A stretch of DNA of 64,000 nt from an uncultured Bdellovibrionales bacterium (GTDB lineage: Bacteria; Patescibacteriota; Minisyncoccia; Moranbacterales; DUUL01). The translations under genes were made by a program, and so were the position numbers. Within the stretch, counting starts at the first letter, position 1. Every line of letters begins with the position of its first letter. The notes beneath the pieces are model-generated. The model saw only the letters and a program-made list of their open reading frames with translations, made no database searches and was not told the origin of the DNA. Shown one piece after another: positions 5,685 to 55,417 of the stretch. The stretch covers positions 78-64,077 of the forward strand of contig CAZKWX010000003.1 of NCBI GenBank assembly GCA_964556685.1, written 5' to 3'.

Positions 5685-6239
5685 TCAAACTATCTCCTCA
5701 CCTTTTCTCCAAATCAACCAATATTTATTTTTGTCTTTCGTTTTCTTTTCCTCCTGCTCGTCTTCAATCAGATGTTTTTGAGAAAATTTTTTTTGTTTAT
5801 TATTAAAGCCTTTGGTCAAGATCATAATGTAGCGACCTTTGACTTTTTCGCCCAAAAGATTGAAAGACAGTTTTCCTTCTTCGAATGATCCATTGATCAT
5901 GCCCCATTTTCCTTCGTCCCAAATTTCCACCGTTCCGGCACCATAGTTGCCTTCAGGAATTTCTCCTTCAAAATCAACATAGTCCACTGGATGATCTTCT
6001 GTTTGAATCGCTAGATGTTTGATTTCCTTGGTCAGAGGCAAGTTCTTAGGAACTGCCCACGATTTGAGCACCACTTTGCCATTCTTCTCATCTTTCATTT
6101 CAAGCCGAAAATCATAGTGCAGATGTGATGCATCGTGTTTTTGAATCACAAACCTCTGTTCCGAAGTCTTTCTGGCAGCGGGCTTCGGTTCTTTTGTCTC
6201 CTTAAAATTGCGTTTGAGCCGATATTGAATTAAGCTCAT
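5685..6239 (-). CDS. LigD-type 3'-phosphoesterase (PE) domain protein, stand-alone
   Basis: 184 aa; HLHYDFRLE motif and beta-rich core typical of the LigD PE / DNA polymerase-ligase N-terminal domain. Confidence 0.6.
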   Translation of the reverse strand: MSLIQYRLKRNFKETKEPKPAARKTSEQRFVIQKHDASHLHYDFRLEMKDEKNGKVVLKSWAVPKNLPLTKEIKHLAIQTEDHPVDYVDFEGEIPEGNYGAGTVEIWDEGKWGMINGSFEEGKLSFNLLGEKVKGRYIMILTKGFNNKQKKFSQKHLIEDEQEEKKTKDKNKYWLIWRKGEEIV

Positions 6240-17533: not shown

Positions 17534-17670
17534 AAAAACTTTCCCAAAAGGAAAGCTTCATTCAGCATCTTTCCTCGAAAGGCTAGAGTTGGCACCTACT
17601 GAGATCAAACTCAGGGTTGCCGGCAGGTCATTGGGCTAGATCCCTATCTGCACTCTTGATGATATTTGGT
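17534..17670 (-). promoter_or_regulatory. SAM-I (S-box) riboswitch with intrinsic terminator in the metK leader
   Basis: Minus-strand ATCAAGAGTGCAGATAGGGATCTAGCCCAATGACCTGCCGGCAACC...GGTGCCAACTCTAGCC matches the S-box consensus; followed by GGAAAGATGCTGAATGAAGCTTTCC stem + UUUUGGG U-run just 5' of the metK ATG. Confidence 0.75.
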
Positions 17671-24278: not shown

Positions 24279-25094
24279 ATGAGTGCTGCACCAGCAAGAA
24301 ATATTATAAACGCCTTTGGTCCCGATAAAAATTCGGAGCTTTTTGAAGGAGGGCAAGGAGAAGCCTATCGAGCAGGTGACATTGTTCTCAAGTCAGTACT
24401 TGATAAAAAGGAAACTATTTGGTGCATAGAAATACTAAATAATTTTCAAAGCGAGAAAGTAAGAGTTACTAAACCTATTAAAGCGAAAAATGGCGACTGG
24501 ATCTTTAATGGTTGGATGGCTTATGAGTATTTGGAGGGAAAAAGTGTTCCTGATGATCTTGAGAATATCTACCAAGTATCAAAAGATTTTCATAAAGTTC
24601 TGAAAAATATTCCGCGTCCAGATTTTTTTGATGATAGAATGGATCCCTGGGCAATCGCCGATAGAATGGCTTGGAACGAATTACCTTTGCCGCTAGAGTT
24701 CGATCAAGCAAGAGAAGCTTTGGAAAGACTAGATCAAGCAAAGGAAAAAATAGACTTAGATAATCAGATAATCCATGGGGACATCGGCGGTAATGTTCTT
24801 TTCCACAAAACATTACCTCCAGCTGTCATTGATTTTAGCCCTTATTGGAGACCAACAAACTTTGCTTTTGCGATAGCAATTGTTGATGCTCTGACCTGGC
24901 AAGGAGCAAGAGAAAAAATAATTAAAATATTCAAGGATATTGAAGAATTGGACCAATTGATTATTAGGGCATTCATACGCCGAATATGTGAGACTATTAA
25001 TTTGTCTGAGTTGCAGAAAAGAGATTGCGCTGAAGATATGAAAAAGCATCTTCAAGCGGCAGATAAAATCTTGGGAAGATTACAAATTAAGTAG
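24279..25094 (+). CDS. Phosphotransferase-family (APH/choline-kinase-like) kinase
   Basis: 271 aa; Brenner motif HGDIGGNVLF and IDFSPYW (DFS/DxD-like Mg site). Confidence 0.6.
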   Translation: MSAAPARNIINAFGPDKNSELFEGGQGEAYRAGDIVLKSVLDKKETIWCIEILNNFQSEKVRVTKPIKAKNGDWIFNGWMAYEYLEGKSVPDDLENIYQVSKDFHKVLKNIPRPDFFDDRMDPWAIADRMAWNELPLPLEFDQAREALERLDQAKEKIDLDNQIIHGDIGGNVLFHKTLPPAVIDFSPYWRPTNFAFAIAIVDALTWQGAREKIIKIFKDIEELDQLIIRAFIRRICETINLSELQKRDCAEDMKKHLQAADKILGRLQIK

Positions 25095-25265
25095 GGTTTT
25101 GAAAAAAGCTAAGTTTCGTGCATCCTGCATGATTGGGAGGGCTAAGCAGTGATTTTTCCTCATGAGATTCCTCATGAGGAAATAAGGAAATGTAATTTGC
25201 TTTAAACGGCTTTTCTGATTATTATTTTGATAAATATAAAGCACGGTAACGTATAAGTATTTTTT

Positions 25266-25739
25266 ATGAAACATTCACTACGCACAGGAATTTGTTTCGG
25301 ATTGACTTCTGCTACCATTACCACTTTGGGATTGATGGTGGGACTTTATTCTGGAACTAGTTCTGAAGCAGTGGTGATCGGAGGAATTATCATCATTGCT
25401 ATTGCCGATGCTCTTTCTGATTCACTGGGGATTCACATTTCAGAGGAGTCAAAGAGCAACCACCGAAAAGATATCTGGGAGGCTACTATTTCTGCTTTTC
25501 TTTCTAAGCTTATTTTTGCCCTCACTTTTCTGCCTGCCCTTTTTCTGCTATCTCTAAAAGTTGCTATTCTGGTAAATGTTTTTTGGGGTTTGTTGGTCTT
25601 GGCAATTTTGAGCTACTTTATTGCCAAAGACCAAAAAGAGTCTGCTTGGAAAGTAATTGGGGAGCATCTTCTAATAGCCGTTATTGTGATTTTAGTTACT
25701 TACTCACTGGGCACATGGATTTCACAATATTTTTCATAA
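25266..25739 (+). CDS. Integral membrane protein, possibly VIT1/CCC1-family
   Basis: 157 aa; 4-5 TM; GLMVGLYSG..GGIIIIAIADALSDSLG resembles the VIT family core. Confidence 0.4.
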   Translation: MKHSLRTGICFGLTSATITTLGLMVGLYSGTSSEAVVIGGIIIIAIADALSDSLGIHISEESKSNHRKDIWEATISAFLSKLIFALTFLPALFLLSLKVAILVNVFWGLLVLAILSYFIAKDQKESAWKVIGEHLLIAVIVILVTYSLGTWISQYFS

Positions 25740-25815
25740 TTCTTTTTTCAAAAATCCGATCTTCTCAGATCGGATTTTTATATTTGAAACTTTCCAATAC
25801 CCATCTATCATTACT

Positions 25816-26205
25816 TTATTTCTTTTTCGCATCCTGCCAAAGACCAATCACATTTCCTTCTGGATCTTTGAAACGGGCATACCAACCCATGTCACTCACC
25901 TGCCAAGGAGCCATCACAGTTTCCCCTCCAGCTTTCTCCACTTCCTTGAGATGATCTTTCAAATGAGGAACATCAATGACAATCACCGGAGTATCATCGT
26001 CTTTCTCTTTTTTCATAATACCACCGTTGATTGCACCAGCTTCTTTGGGCATTTTATTTTCGTCAACTTCTACAGTGTGAACCATGGTATACTTTCCTTC
26101 CGCCATTTCCACATCCTCAGTTTTCCAACCAAAAACTTTTGAATAAAAGCCCTTAGCTCGTTCAACATTATCAGCGGGTATTTCAAAATGCACTACTTTG
26201 TTCAT
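25816..26205 (-). CDS. VOC family (glyoxalase/bleomycin-resistance fold) protein
   Basis: 129 aa; MNKVVHFEIPADNVERAKGFYSKVFGW...DPEGNVIGLWQ. Confidence 0.8.
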   Translation of the reverse strand: MNKVVHFEIPADNVERAKGFYSKVFGWKTEDVEMAEGKYTMVHTVEVDENKMPKEAGAINGGIMKKEKDDDTPVIVIDVPHLKDHLKEVEKAGGETVMAPWQVSDMGWYARFKDPEGNVIGLWQDAKKK

Positions 26206-32645: not shown

Positions 32646-33587
32646 CTATTCTAAAATCTCTTCCACTTTCACTTCAATCACCCCTTTCCCCAATGGAGCC
32701 AGTTTTTCGAAAGCCACTTTGTCTAAATCTATCATCTTTCCTGTTCCGCGCATAGGTCCAAAGTCATTAACTTGCACAAAAACTCGTTTGCCATTTTCTC
32801 GATTGGTCACTCGCAGCCAAGTTCCTCGCGGGAACATTCGGGAAGCGCAAGCCATGGTGCCGGCGTGGGTATACCAACTGGCCACTCCCACCTTGGTCTT
32901 GCCCACTTCCACTTTGGTGCCGATTCGCACAATTTCTTTCACTGGCTTTTTGAGCACTTTGGAAGAGAGTTCTTCTTTGGAAATTTTTTTGCCATTTTTA
33001 TAGGTAACTCGATAAGTTACTTCCTCTAAGCCTTTTTCACCTTCTTGTTTAACCTTTTTTCTTCTCCAGCGCAAATCATCATCTTCTTTCTCCACTGTTT
33101 TAAAATCGATCTTTTCTTCCGCCGTCACTTCTTCAATGTTAATTCGGGTTACCACAATCTCCATATCTTTTTGCAAAACCGTGTCTTTCCCTGGTTCCAC
33201 TTTGTCCAGATGACTCATCGTCACCCCGGTTCCAGCTAGCGCCCCGGAAACACTGGTGGCAAAAACATTTTTCTCAATTACTCTACGGTCCACTTCGATC
33301 ACGACCGGCATGGCTCGTTCAATTTCCACTGTCAATCCCGGTGTCACTCGAGCTGCCAATCCTGGATAGACTCGATCATCAGCTCCCAAGCTGATTCCCT
33401 GGCTTTCAATCAAGCTTTTTACGTTTTCAACACTTGAATTTATGTTGTAACGAAAGCCATTATCTACTAAAATAACATTTTTTTCTCCCGAAAAATTCAC
33501 CTGTCTCTTCCCAAACCAAAAAGCTCCCGCTCTGGCTCCCAGCAGAATCAAAACTAAAAGAAAAGTTATGAAAATCGCCCTTTTCAT
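32646..33587 (-). CDS. G5-domain and 3D/RlpA-like (DPBB) domain cell-wall protein (YabE/Rpf-like architecture)
   Basis: 313 aa; N-terminal TM; G5-like VTYRVTYKNGK; C-terminal GVASWYTHAGTMACASRMFPRGTWLRVTNRENGKRVFVQVNDFGP DPBB motif. Confidence 0.6.
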   Translation of the reverse strand: MKRAIFITFLLVLILLGARAGAFWFGKRQVNFSGEKNVILVDNGFRYNINSSVENVKSLIESQGISLGADDRVYPGLAARVTPGLTVEIERAMPVVIEVDRRVIEKNVFATSVSGALAGTGVTMSHLDKVEPGKDTVLQKDMEIVVTRINIEEVTAEEKIDFKTVEKEDDDLRWRRKKVKQEGEKGLEEVTYRVTYKNGKKISKEELSSKVLKKPVKEIVRIGTKVEVGKTKVGVASWYTHAGTMACASRMFPRGTWLRVTNRENGKRVFVQVNDFGPMRGTGKMIDLDKVAFEKLAPLGKGVIEVKVEEILE

Positions 33588-33624
33588 CGACGATGATTAT
33601 AGCATAAGTATTTTATCTGGGTAG

Positions 33625-33668
33625 GGCCAAAAAATAGTATATACTATGGTATATACTATTTTTTGGCC
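33625..33668. repeat. Perfect 19-bp inverted repeat GGCCAAAAAATAGTATATA-CTATGG-TATATACTATTTTTTGGCC
   Basis: Perfect palindrome upstream of the 32646..33587 gene; core AGTATATACTAT(A/G)GTATATAC recurs at 9044-9066. Confidence 0.6.
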
Positions 33669-33852
33669 GATAAAACTTGAGTGCTTCTTCATCGCAAATT
33701 TTCTCTTTTGATACTATTTAATTATCTACAAGCTAATGATAGACAATGAGGTATTAAAAAACAAGGTGAACACCTTGTTTTTATCTGAGCCGAGACCAGG
33801 AATTGAACTCGCCCCGCACCAATACTTTCTTATCGCTTAAAAATCAATAGAA

Positions 33853-33906
33853 TGGAGCCGAAGACCGGGCTTGAACCGATAACCTACCGCTTACAAGGCG
33901 GTTGCC
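33853..33906 (-). pseudogene. 3' two-thirds fragment of a second tRNA-Thr(UGU) (anticodon arm, T arm, acceptor 3' strand, encoded CCA)
   Basis: GCAACCGCCTTGTAAGCGGTAGGTTATCGGTTCAAGCCCGGTCTTCGGCTCCA; no matching 5' acceptor strand nearby; lies 17 nt downstream of the intact tRNA-Thr(UGU). Confidence 0.5.
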
Positions 33907-33923
33907 CCGCCTGCCTATGCCTG

Positions 33924-33996
33924 AGCCCACGGTCGGGCTTGAACCGACAACCTACCGCTTACAAGGCGGTTGCTCTACCAATTGAGCTACGTGGGC
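33924..33996 (-). tRNA. tRNA-Thr (anticodon UGU)
   Basis: GCCCACG/CGTGGGC acceptor, D arm GCTCAATTGGTAGAGC, anticodon stem ACCGC/GCGGT with loop CUUGUAA, T arm GTCGGTTCAAGCCCGAC, discriminator U. Confidence 0.8.
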
Positions 33997-34384
33997 TTAG
34001 GCGAAGGCGGGCAGGTCTACCATTGAGTCCCGATGTACCGCAAGGCGGTAATCGGGACCCCGACTTCACGTCAGGGCTATCTCGGCAAGAAGAATCAGCG
34101 TCTGCACTTCGTAAACCCCGCTCTTTAACATAAACATAAAGGACGGGACGAGATAGTGGGCCACCTCGAGACGAAACTCGAAGGATGGGAAAATTGCCAA
34201 AACGGCGAAGTAAGAACCAACTGAGAAAAAAGCGAAAGTAGATGATCAGAAAAATAATTCTTGGATAGAGTAACAGTAATTAATTCAATCCATCAATCTG
34301 TATTTGATCATATGAAATAAAAACTGTAAAGCTGCAATAAATATTGAATTTATTTTATAAAATAAGAATGTCGATATTATATTC

Positions 34385-34789
34385 CTAATCGCGTCCAGAC
34401 ACAACAATTACATATCCAGCTGGGTCTCTAAAAGAAAATTCGTATGACCCATAATCAGTTTCAATCGGACCGGTTTCAACAGAACATTCCTTTTCACGCA
34501 GCTTTTCTAAAAGAGCCTTTGCGTAAGTTACCGGTTTAATCCGCATGACCAAAGCAAAATTTGGCTTGCCAGTCTCATTCGACACTCCGGAAAGCTCTTT
34601 GCTTAGATAGTCCAACCGTTCAAACATGAGCCGCGATGTTCCAGAAGAAATCTCGGCCCAAAACGGAATACCGCGCTCATCCTTCTCAATTTCTAATAGC
34701 TTGCATCCAAGAATATCAACATAAAAGTCTAAGACACTTTGGATGTCTCCAACACCTAATTCAAGAACGAATTGTGTACTTTTTTTCAT
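34385..34789 (-). CDS. VOC/glyoxalase-fold family protein
   Basis: 134 aa; MKKSTQFVLELGVGDIQSVLDFYVDILGCKLLE...FRDPAGYVIVV; SD AGGAGG upstream; bracketed by ~30-bp direct repeats. Confidence 0.7.
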   Translation of the reverse strand: MKKSTQFVLELGVGDIQSVLDFYVDILGCKLLEIEKDERGIPFWAEISSGTSRLMFERLDYLSKELSGVSNETGKPNFALVMRIKPVTYAKALLEKLREKECSVETGPIETDYGSYEFSFRDPAGYVIVVSGRD

Positions 34790-34871
34790 TATTCGGCCTC
34801 CTTCTTAGTTACTAGGACACAAATTGAAAAAGCCAGACCTCAAGGATGGGAAGATTGCTAAAACGGCGATA

Positions 34872-34957
34872 TGGTGGGCCGGGAGAGATTCGAACTCCCG
34901 TAGGCTTGCGCCGCCAGATTTACAGTCTGGTGCATTTGACCGCTCTGCCACCGACCC
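34872..34957 (-). tRNA. tRNA-Tyr (anticodon GUA), long variable arm, CCA encoded
   Basis: GGGTCGGTGGCAGAGCGGTCAAATGCACCAGACTGTAAATCTGGCGGCGCAAGCCTACGGGAGTTCGAATCTCTCCCGGCCCACCA. Confidence 0.85.
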
Positions 34958-35139
34958 ATGATTTGTCGCTTTTAAATTAATTTATAACGATTTGGTAGTG
35001 CCTGCACTTCGTAGCCTTGGTGTTTATAGCACAGATCTTTGAATTCTCAATTATCTGCCCTACTTCGCTACCTACTTCGCTAAAGCTACGAAGGTCAAGA
35101 AAGCTTCGAAGGGCACTACTTCACCAAGGCGAAGTAGTG

Positions 35140-35422
35140 AGCCGTTGCGCGGGGTTGAACCGCGGACCTCATCCTTCATTTACACCTCTATTTTAATTAG
35201 CACGATATTAGAGGATTAGACTGTATCTTAGACTTATCCTGAAAACACTTAGGACTTAGTCTCTCTTGTCAGTCGTTCGGGCCCTACTACGATAGTGCCA
35301 CGGTCTTGACCTCGTACCAGGCTTTTAACCGTTATTCGAGATTCACATTACTGTTTCCAATTATGTGGGCATGGACTCTTCGTCCCACCATGGATGCGCT
35401 CTACCAACTGAGCTACAACGGC
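35140..35422 (-). tRNA. tRNA-Thr (anticodon GGU) interrupted in the anticodon loop by a ~210-nt group-I-like intron
   Basis: Exon1 GCCGTTGTAGCTCAGTTGGTAGAGCGCATCCATGGT and exon2 AAGGATGAGGTCCGCGGTTCAACCCCGCGCAACGGCT form a complete cloverleaf; split after U36 gives U-ending 5' exon and G-ending intron; R/S-like elements AGAGACUAAGUCC and AAGAUACAGUCUAAUC. Confidence 0.6.
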
Positions 35423-54005: not shown

Positions 54006-54917
54006 ATGTCAAAAATTCAGAATCTCATTACTGACTATCTCGAATATCTTGAAGTTGATCTCGGCCGATCCGAGAAGACTTTGGAAAATTATCATCGCTA
54101 TTTAAATAAATTTATTGAGTGGTCAAAGATCACCAGCTCTTCCCAAATCAATGAAAATTTGGTTCACAAATATCGGGTTCGTCTCAATCGAGTTCAAGAC
54201 AAAAGTGGCAAGAGTCTTTCTCGTCGAACTCAGAATTATCACATCATCGCTCTGCGAGGTTTTTTGAAATATCTTTCCAAAAAAGATATCAAATCTCTAG
54301 CGGCCGAAAAATTGGACTTAGCTAAAACTGAAGAACGGCAAGTTGATTTTCTCACTTTCGATGAAGTGAAAAGTCTCATTGAAGCAGCTGAAGGGACTAC
54401 TCAAATGAAGTTGCGTGATCAAGCTATTTTAAAGCTTTTTTTCTCTTCTGGTCTTCGAATTTCTGAATTAACAAGTCTCAATCGTGATCAAATCAATCTC
54501 AAAAGTGGTGAATTTTCTGTTCGTGGCAAAGGCTCAAAAGTGAGAATCGTCTTTGTTTCTGATGTGGCTCGCGATGCTATTCGCAAATATTTCGATAAGC
54601 GCACTGATGTGGACCAAGCCCTCTTTGTTCGAGTGATGAAAAATCCTGAAAAAGAATCTGACCTGCGCTTAAGTGCTCGGAGTGTCCAAAGAATGATCAA
54701 AAAATATGCTGCCAAGGCTGGCATCGTCAAAAAAGTCACTCCTCACGTTCTGCGCCACAGCTTCGCCACTGACCTGCTTCAGAACGGTGCCGACATTCGT
54801 TCCGTTCAAGCCCTCTTGGGCCACAGCTCAATCAACACCACTCAGATCTATACTCATGTGACCAACAAAGATCTCAAAGAAGTGCACCGAAAGTTTCATG
54901 GAAAGGAGAGGAGGTAA
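54006..54917 (+). CDS. xerC: Tyrosine site-specific recombinase XerC/XerD-like
   Basis: 303 aa; RHSFATDLLQNGADIRSVQALLGHSSINTTQIYTHV C-terminal catalytic block (R..HxxR..Y). Confidence 0.85.
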   Translation: MSKIQNLITDYLEYLEVDLGRSEKTLENYHRYLNKFIEWSKITSSSQINENLVHKYRVRLNRVQDKSGKSLSRRTQNYHIIALRGFLKYLSKKDIKSLAAEKLDLAKTEERQVDFLTFDEVKSLIEAAEGTTQMKLRDQAILKLFFSSGLRISELTSLNRDQINLKSGEFSVRGKGSKVRIVFVSDVARDAIRKYFDKRTDVDQALFVRVMKNPEKESDLRLSARSVQRMIKKYAAKAGIVKKVTPHVLRHSFATDLLQNGADIRSVQALLGHSSINTTQIYTHVTNKDLKEVHRKFHGKERR

Positions 54918-55156: not shown

Positions 55157-55230
55157 GGACGATTAGCTCAGGTGGTTAGAGCGTTCGCTTGACATGCGAG
55201 AGGTCGGAGGTTCAAGTCCTCCATCGTCCA
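55157..55230 (+). tRNA. tRNA-Val (anticodon GAC)
   Basis: GGACGAT/ATCGTCC acceptor, D arm GCTCAGGTGGTTAGAGC, anticodon stem-loop TTCGC-TTGACAT-GCGAG, T arm GGAGGTTCAAGTCCTCC, discriminator A. Confidence 0.85.
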
Positions 55231-55417
55231 CAAGGAAGTCAGAGATTTTAACAATTTGTCTCCGACGTTACGTTGGAGCAACAAATCGAAATCCGCTCTT
55301 GGCGGGCAAGTCCCCTCGAGCCCACAAGATAAAAGGCGTCTCTAGCGCTTTTTTAGTTTTTTCTGTTTTACTTTCCTCTTTTTTGATGTTACATTTGGAA
55401 TACCTAAAGTAAAAAAT

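Follow-up and report, generated by a model that had tools for sequence, protein, structure and literature searches.

How does a protein-coding gene come to sit inside a tRNA operon? The question is raised by a 64,000-nucleotide stretch (the window) of contig CAZKWX010000003.1, from an uncultured Bdellovibrionales bacterium that GTDB places in the Moranbacterales (Patescibacteriota), where a single gene of the VOC superfamily (glyoxalase fold) lies between two 28-bp direct repeats just downstream of tRNA-Tyr. The evidence supports an insertion: the VOC unit has entered the tRNA operon, and the two 28-mers are the duplication at its junctions. The repeats are 26/28 identical, occupy 34181–34208 (left copy) and 34842–34869 (right copy), and read TCGCCGTTTTGGCAATTTTCCCATCCTT and TCGCCGTTTTAGCAATCTTCCCATCCTT on the minus strand. 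Their edges are sharp, the gene between them is intact, no open reading frame (ORF) stands at this place in relatives, and the spacer that received the unit is a hot spot of recombination. As to mechanism, we lean towards a single crossover of a DNA circle at the 28-bp site, which would make the two copies attL- and attR-like junctions (left and right attachment sites) and the present unit an integrase-less remnant.

The repeats and the unit between them

All elements of the operon lie on the minus strand, in the order tRNA-Thr(GGU), a 181-nt spacer, tRNA-Tyr, 2 nt, the right copy, the VOC unit, the left copy, ~185 nt of GC-rich sequence, tRNA-Thr(UGU), a D-arm-less tRNA-Thr copy, and a hairpin with a T-run. 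Beyond this terminator come a yabE-like G5 gene and then ksgA. The unit measures 661 bp, that is, 633 unique bp and one 28-bp copy, and a reconstructed empty site would read tRNA-Tyr, TA, one 28-mer, CGAGTTTCG... The unit and its immediate surroundings comprise the following features.

34872–34957, minus: tRNA-Tyr(GUA) with encoded CCA; the insertion point is directly 3' of it
34842–34869, minus: right 28-mer copy, operon-proximal, beginning 2 nt past the CCA end of tRNA-Tyr
34790–34841, minus: leader of the unit, 52 nt, with the Shine-Dalgarno sequence AAGGAGG 8 nt before the ATG
34385–34789, minus: VOC gene, 134 aa, intact, the sole cargo (Pfam PF00903; model pLDDT 90)
34209–34384, minus: AT-rich tail, 176 nt, 24% GC, with no ORF and no similarity to any fetched sequence
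34181–34208, minus: left 28-mer copy, operon-distal, 26/28 identical to the right copy and identical in the independent assembly L002
34152–34184, minus: hairpin and GGCCCAC-TATC after the left copy, from folding and a marginal tRNA-Tyr alignment
33755–33780, minus: hairpin and T-run that end the operon; relatives have an equivalent terminator, and a simple terminator scan made no call here

The original prediction had described ~30-bp direct repeats at this locus. The repeats are real, at 26/28 (or 26/29 with the extra base counted then), although their coordinates had been given 1–4 nt off. The two mismatches, at repeat positions 11 and 17, are both transitions (G/A and T/C) and leave the copies 7% diverged. 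It had also been asked whether the repeat is a widespread genomic one; within the 64-kb window there are only these two copies, with no third at three or fewer mismatches. Local alignment of the copies together with their 150-nt flanks ends at the repeat, adding at most a gapped GAG, and the 200-nt flanks upstream and downstream of the two copies resemble each other only at shuffle level. A segmental duplication, with extended homology around the 28-mer, was rejected on this evidence. The ends of the unit, AGGTCTGG... and ...GGTTCTTACT, carry no terminal inverted repeats. A clean direct duplication with unrelated flanks and no terminal inverted repeats points to a single reciprocal crossover between a circle and a site that shared this sequence. 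Two further identities for the repeat were rejected: a promoter of sigma-70 or sigma-54 type within the 28-mer, since the spacings do not fit and the promoter scan stays at background, and the template/variable repeat pair of a diversity-generating retroelement, given mismatches of G/A and T/C and the absence of a reverse transcriptase.

Could the pair have arisen by chance or in assembly? Chance found no footing in the shuffles, as none of 100 dinucleotide-preserving ones gave a match. An assembly artefact might be suspected at the right junction (tRNA-Tyr, right copy, and VOC 5' end): the strain is present in five Logan assemblies, and none of them contains this junction, which is seen only in the window itself. 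Logan contigs with the flanking genes break off near 35076, 34445, or 33983, in part inside the locus, and none spans the site. The left junction (VOC 3' end, tail, left copy, and downstream sequence), however, recurs exactly in L002, an independent Logan assembly from another sample (SRR29008691), and the longest exact run in the repeat pair does not exceed 11 nt, too short for a k-mer misjoin. We therefore regard chance or artefact as very improbable. An empty-site allele within the same strain was not found among these Logan contigs, which stop short of spanning the site.

One credible ORF (34385–34789, minus strand, 134 aa) lies in the 633 bp that separate the copies, and with AAGGAGG 8 nt upstream of its ATG this bears out the predicted unit of a lone glyoxalase-fold gene with its own Shine-Dalgarno sequence. 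A short hairpin had been proposed after each copy; the left one holds up (−15.6 kcal/mol, z −2.35) and the right one does not (−4.6 kcal/mol, z +1.06). The leader contains no convincing promoter of its own, and our scan of the unit made no promoter or terminator calls above background. The lack of a convincing promoter at the gene points to expression by read-through from the promoter of the tRNA operon. Judged by its sequence context, the VOC gene is thus probably transcribed as part of the operon and translated from its own Shine-Dalgarno sequence.

The layout also suggests another role for the repeat. Both copies start a downstream transcript segment, the VOC leader in one case and the spacer before tRNA-Thr in the other, and imperfect pairing with the tRNA-Tyr leader would be possible, by eye, for the initial ~10 nt of the right copy. 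The 28-mer might, then, be a functional motif kept twice at the 5' end of downstream units, for RNA processing, protection, or regulation. The 28-mer shows no secondary structure on folding, though, its two contexts fold differently, and neither it nor the GC-rich spacer matches an Rfam family. Moreover, the 28-mer is absent from the operon in five relatives, and a functional motif would leave unexplained why a protein gene lies inside the tRNA operon, and only here. We give a functional motif just a slight chance of being the answer.

The tRNA-Tyr/tRNA-Thr spacer as a recombination hot spot

Relatives were anchored on the upstream TPR protein (41–46% identity), yielding five contigs (L033, L034, L035, L036, and L038); homologues of the neighboring proteins are annotated as Patescibacteria or Candidatus Moranbacteria. 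In all five, rpsB-tsf-PSP1-TPR is followed directly by tRNA-Thr(GGU), tRNA-Tyr(GUA), a spacer, tRNA-Thr(UGU), and a terminator, the last tRNA being absent in L038. No protein gene interrupts the tRNA operon in any of them. Between tRNA-Tyr and tRNA-Thr, L035 has 67 nt of spacer, L033 has 116 nt, L034 has 160 nt, and L036 has no fewer than 356 nt; the window has 875 nt, which removal of the 661-bp unit would reduce to 214 nt. Nothing equivalent to the 28-mer, the leader, the tail, or the GC-rich spacer is present in these five. The original prediction had proposed looking in relatives for an empty site, and in the broad sense of an operon without the ORF it is there in 5/5; in the strict sense, tRNA-Tyr followed by a single repeat copy, it went unobserved, the 28-mer being absent from these relatives. 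The tRNA-Tyr CCA is encoded in the window (34872–34874) and not in the five relatives, which read ...GGCCCACA.

The downstream side was searched with the G5/yabE gene as anchor. Scans of genome and metagenome contigs and look-ups of its closest homologues gave no empty site, because synteny between this side and the tRNA operon is not conserved: the closest G5 homologues (61% identity) have no tRNA operon upstream. Synteny with L033–L036 breaks right after the tRNA operon (window 33587–33790), where these relatives have a small ORF and RNase J and the window has yabE-ksgA. In one G5-anchored relative (L027), yabE-ksgA is preceded by a 681-aa gene instead.

Across the lineage, the tRNA-Tyr/tRNA-Thr spacer is a recombination hot spot. 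L033 (5379–5494), L034 (2205–2320), and L036 (3914–4269) each carry, between tRNA-Tyr and tRNA-Thr(UGU), a conserved pseudo-element derived from tRNA-Tyr; it reads ...GGGTGGTCAAATG..TGTAAGACAGGACCGGACGAGGTC(T/A)TGTCCG.. and closes with a copy of the tRNA-Tyr 3' end. In L036 it is arrayed in tandem, with a unit of ~105 nt, and the record contains a stretch of N at this point. Pieces of the 5' ends of tRNA-Thr or tRNA-Tyr stand just upstream of the complete genes in L034 (2316–2364) and L038 (3843–3893 and 4031–4066), each followed by CCCGCC, CCGCCCGAGGCGG, or CGCCCAAGGCGG. The window locus has at least three tRNA-Thr fragments in addition to a nested tRNA-Thr, and the irregular tRNA fragments at the locus lie in both orientations. 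Given the tRNA fragments, the pseudo-elements, and the differing gene order downstream, the VOC unit is one of several insertions or replacements at this locus.

We list the remnants of the GC-rich spacer and the tRNA-Thr(UGU) region here, with the first gene of the operon.

35140–35422, minus: tRNA-Thr(GGU), first gene of the operon, with a ~210-nt insert in the anticodon loop (35386–35177)
33997–34151, minus: GC-rich spacer that retains pieces of an older tRNA-Thr(UGU); no Rfam match
~34086–34074, minus: 5' end of the older tRNA-Thr, GCCGAGATAGCCC, assigned by eye
~34060–34030, minus: anticodon-arm-like hairpin of the older tRNA-Thr, assigned by eye
34027–34004, minus: D-loop piece of the older tRNA-Thr, in the GC-rich spacer
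33923–33996, minus: present tRNA-Thr(UGU), acceptor stem GCCCACG, with inverted-repeat flanks and nested in the older copy
33856–33914, minus: D-arm-less tRNA-Thr copy
33855–33905, minus: 3' fragment of the older tRNA-Thr(UGU), 51 nt, from the anticodon stem through the 3' end, 47/51 identical to the L035 tRNA

With GCCGAAG/CTTCGGC, the older tRNA-Thr(UGU) has the acceptor stem of the L035 gene, and a further ~22-nt T-loop/acceptor (3') piece of tRNA-Thr lies downstream of the nested tRNA. The nested-tRNA insert has inverted-repeat ends, CTGCCCGCCTTCGCCTAA / TCAGGCATAGGCAGGCGGG, which lengthen the acceptor stem (window 33787–34086, minus strand). The nested tRNA-Thr(UGU) may be a tRNA-carrying mini-element or the outcome of serial tRNA replacement. 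A recurring CCCGCC-type junction motif in L034 and L038 resembles the termini of this nested tRNA. Immediately after the left 28-mer copy, the hairpin (CGAGTTTCGTCTCGAGGTGGCCCAC-TATC) aligns marginally with tRNA-Tyr, as well as 52 of 1000 shuffles do, and relatives have tRNA-Tyr 3' fragments at the equivalent place. By its sequence, the hairpin is probably a decayed tRNA-Tyr T-arm with the 3' acceptor strand and the first trailer bases, and hence an older scar. A second boundary of the VOC unit was considered at a 17-mer common to 34097–34113 and 34997–35013 (12-nt exact core, reached in 2 of 300 shuffles) and rejected; the pair probably reflects short tRNA-Thr 5'-end-like fragments (GAAGT...) scattered over the locus.

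The first gene of the operon is interrupted as well. In tRNA-Thr(GGU), ...ATGGT closes the 5' exon, the last base of the insert is G, and AAGGATG opens the 3' exon. ARAGORN does not detect this gene, which with its insert still folds as a cloverleaf plus a structured insert (z −3.3). The insert has no Rfam match and gives no group I intron even at E≤10. It is identical in five Logan samples, and the gene is uninterrupted in 5/5 relatives. This 210-nt insert and the nested tRNA-Thr with its inverted termini are the more unusual features of the locus. Upstream of tRNA-Tyr, the Logan contigs of the strain (L028–L032, five samples) end at ~35076, within a 12-nt tandem, AGCGAAGTAGGT/AGCGAAGTAGGG (window 35057–35082), that resembles a tRNA-Thr 5' end. 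The population may vary in copy number here, which would account for the shared contig end.

Irregular tRNA fragments in both orientations suggest repeated, messy recombination, and this raises the possibility that the VOC gene was captured with no dedicated site-specific recombinase, by homology-facilitated or illegitimate recombination or by break repair in a fragile tRNA spacer. The 28-bp duplication would then be a by-product, for example of a RecA-type single crossover on chance or shared homology. Such a route would suit a 28-mer that lacks dyad symmetry and recombinase-type architecture and has no integrase nearby, and a gene with a LigD phosphoesterase domain is present at 5685–6239. 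Nonetheless, a sharp 28-bp duplication with no rearrangement at its junctions is more typical of reciprocal crossover than of end-joining. Twenty-eight bp is also at the lower limit for efficient homologous recombination. We consider recombinase-independent capture unlikely, though it deserves to be kept in mind.

The VOC protein and its homologues

The cargo is a recognizable VOC protein. It matches Pfam Glyoxalase (PF00903, 1.2e-10, residues 10–129), aligns end to end with its own subfamily, and has an AlphaFold model (pLDDT 90) with the two βαβββ modules that define the superfamily fold. A Foldseek search with this model returned 339 PDB matches at E≤1e-3, and all among the matches listed are VOC proteins. 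The best are integron-cassette proteins from Vibrio and sewage (3ey8, 3ey7, and 3ghj), together with the drug-sequestering self-resistance proteins TnmS1/S3, MRD, BLMA, and TioX, with TM-scores of 0.6–0.77 across these best matches. The modeled fold suggests that the product probably binds or detoxifies a small molecule.

The subfamily is very rare. Run in full against 1.84 billion representative proteins, HMMER gave 79 hits at E≤1e-3, 13 at E≤1e-10, and 1 at E≤1e-30. The sole close homologues (54–60% identity) are encoded in GC-rich contigs, by the translationally coupled gene that closes a conserved operon; its other genes are PTPS/QueD-like, cytidine-deaminase-like, class-III aminotransferase, squalene-cyclase-like, and SAM methyltransferase genes. 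These operon loci (L003 2256–6405 and L005 513–5190) represent an uncharacterised biosynthetic cluster, and the four contigs with VOC homologues all stop 100–270 nt past the VOC gene. The 28-mer was not found at the homologue loci; hence the repeat is no recombination site that travels with a cassette, as in integrons. Of the predicted integrated cassette or att-site duplication, as opposed to chance, the insertion and its junction duplication thus stand and an integron-type cassette does not.

Elsewhere in the window, a second and unrelated VOC/Ble-like gene (25816–26205) weakly matches the KbpA model. An aminoglycoside-phosphotransferase-family gene lies near it (24279–25094), and the interval 24279–26205 may be a small cluster of resistance-type accessory genes. 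A SAM riboswitch (S-box) at 17562–17665 on the minus strand scores 58.4 bits, above the Rfam gathering score.

Route of insertion and known mobile elements

In the single-crossover reading that we favor, a DNA circle carrying the VOC gene and one 28-mer would have recombined once with the 28-bp sequence directly after tRNA-Tyr, and this crossover would have left attL- and attR-like copies on either side of the VOC unit. The recombinase may have been supplied in trans or lost since. What remains would be a fixed, integrase-less cis-mobilizable element (CIME) or genomic islet.

Several findings weigh against this course of events. Integrases that target tRNA genes usually duplicate the tRNA 3' end. 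The right copy, predicted to abut tRNA-Tyr, does so to within 2 nt, starting that far past the encoded CCA at 34872 and therefore outside the tRNA. No integrase lies between the repeats or within 19 kb of the unit. A single recombinase is encoded in the 64 kb, an Xer tyrosine recombinase of housekeeping type (54006–54917, plus strand), 19 kb away, that passes the NCBIfam XerA cut-off, falls below those for XerC and XerD, and scores below the cut-offs of the integron-integrase models. The 28-mer has no dyad symmetry, its left 11 nt agreeing with the reverse complement of its right 11 nt at 1/11 positions when read from the sequence. With no tRNA overlap, no dyad symmetry, and no integrase nearby, the 28-mer is at most a putative att site. 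IMG/VR does not contain its full-length pattern, and neither IMG/VR nor the phage and plasmid collections contain the VOC protein. An exact empty site, with tRNA-Tyr and one 28-mer copy, was not found among the five distant relatives. Nor is the VOC gene compositionally foreign, at 41.5% GC against 39.7% for the window and with host-like codon use, so its acquisition was not recent or its donor was of similar composition.

Half-site patterns of the 28-mer gave 47 and 59 matches in IMG/VR, judged to be at chance level by a rough k-mer estimate; the best extension reaches 24/28, inside an ORF with no tRNA nearby. With no full-length pattern, near-chance half-sites, and no VOC protein in IMG/VR, a phage or plasmid att site was rejected as the identity of the 28-mer. 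The Xer gene adjoins tRNA-Val (55157–55231), and FtsK is encoded at 511–2838.

Might the unit still move? A repeat-gene-repeat layout with a repeat of exactly 28 bp, and an Xer-type recombinase 19 kb away, would suit an active 661-bp integrase-less cassette that is excised and integrated at the 28-bp site by a recombinase acting in trans, either Xer-type or an integrase encoded elsewhere. The repeat mismatches bracket a central GCAAT and are compatible with the ends of a 7-bp overlap, as random placement would give in about 7% of cases; the VOC fold is, moreover, known integron-cassette cargo, as the structural matches 3ey8, 3ey7, and 3ghj illustrate. Against activity, the 28-mer has no dyad symmetry and so is not dif-like, and there is no attC-type structure. 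No second site or cassette appears in the window, the relatives, the VOC homologue loci, or IMG/VR; the copies are 7% diverged, and the VOC gene has a host-like composition. We judge a still-active cassette to be improbable.

A broader proposal joins several oddities of the locus. A one-gene circle with a 28-bp site could insert behind tRNA-Tyr through a recombinase acting in trans, possibly Xer, as part of a lineage-specific system that rewrites the operon. This proposal takes in, jointly, the nested tRNA-Thr with its CCCGCC/GGCGGG termini, the tandem tRNA-Tyr-like units, and the anticodon-loop insert. We hold out little hope for it, either for the circle or for the whole; if true, the circle would be among the smallest autonomous-looking mobile cassettes known.

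Among known systems, the VOC unit comes closest to CIMEs, whose description (PMC5704250) fits direct repeats of about this length that enclose no recombinase. Like CIMEs and genomic islets, it is a short foreign segment with direct repeats of att-core length and no integration or transfer genes inside, absent from this site in five distant relatives that also lack the 28-mer, and it lies beside a tRNA gene at a locus scarred by several earlier events. Unlike CIMEs, it is only 661 bp long with a single gene, its repeat begins 2 nt past the tRNA instead of overlapping the 3' end, it has no known cognate integrase or parent element, and its host belongs to the Patescibacteria. With tRNA-targeting islands and prophages it shares the position immediately 3' of a tRNA, the flanking direct repeats, and partial tRNA copies nearby; it differs from them in lacking both a flanking duplication of the tRNA 3' end and an integrase. 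The duplicated tRNA fragments seen here stem from separate, earlier events.

Three further classes were rejected. Integron cassettes resemble the unit in having one promoterless small ORF between repeated sites, expressed from an upstream promoter, and VOC-fold cargo is known among them. In contrast, the unit has no attC (a 57–141-bp imperfect palindrome with a GTTRRRY core), no integron integrase, and no attI; there is a single unit and no array, and VOC homologues elsewhere do not carry the 28-mer. No GTTRRRY occurs at the unit boundaries, and the sole palindrome in the tail is an AT-only 16-mer. An unstructured 28-mer in just two copies, without attC or an integron integrase, led us to reject an integron cassette. 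Xer-dependent elements (IMEX) and the pdif modules of Acinetobacter plasmids likewise have 28-bp sites, a single accessory or resistance-type gene, and an Xer-type recombinase. Sites of dif type, however, are built as 11-6-11 with inverted arms, a symmetry that the window's 28-mer lacks at 1/11, and a dif/Xer module was rejected for this reason. Transposons and miniature inverted-repeat transposable elements (MITEs) also have direct repeats at both ends, but the unit has neither terminal inverted repeats nor a transposase. To our knowledge, 28 bp is far longer than known target-site duplications; a transposon or MITE was rejected on the missing inverted repeats and the length of the duplication.

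Patescibacteria have tiny genomes, and gene gain in them is little documented. The VOC locus is a fairly ordinary scar of gene acquisition at a tRNA hot spot, and nothing indicates present mobility. On present evidence it neatly illustrates a commonplace process: a small insertion next to a tRNA gene, with no integrase. Here a single accessory gene, probably for resistance or detoxification, can be followed at base-pair resolution as it was gained and apparently wired into a tRNA operon for its expression. Should the 28-mer turn out to be functional in recombination, it would mark out a very small kind of gene cassette in the Patescibacteria.

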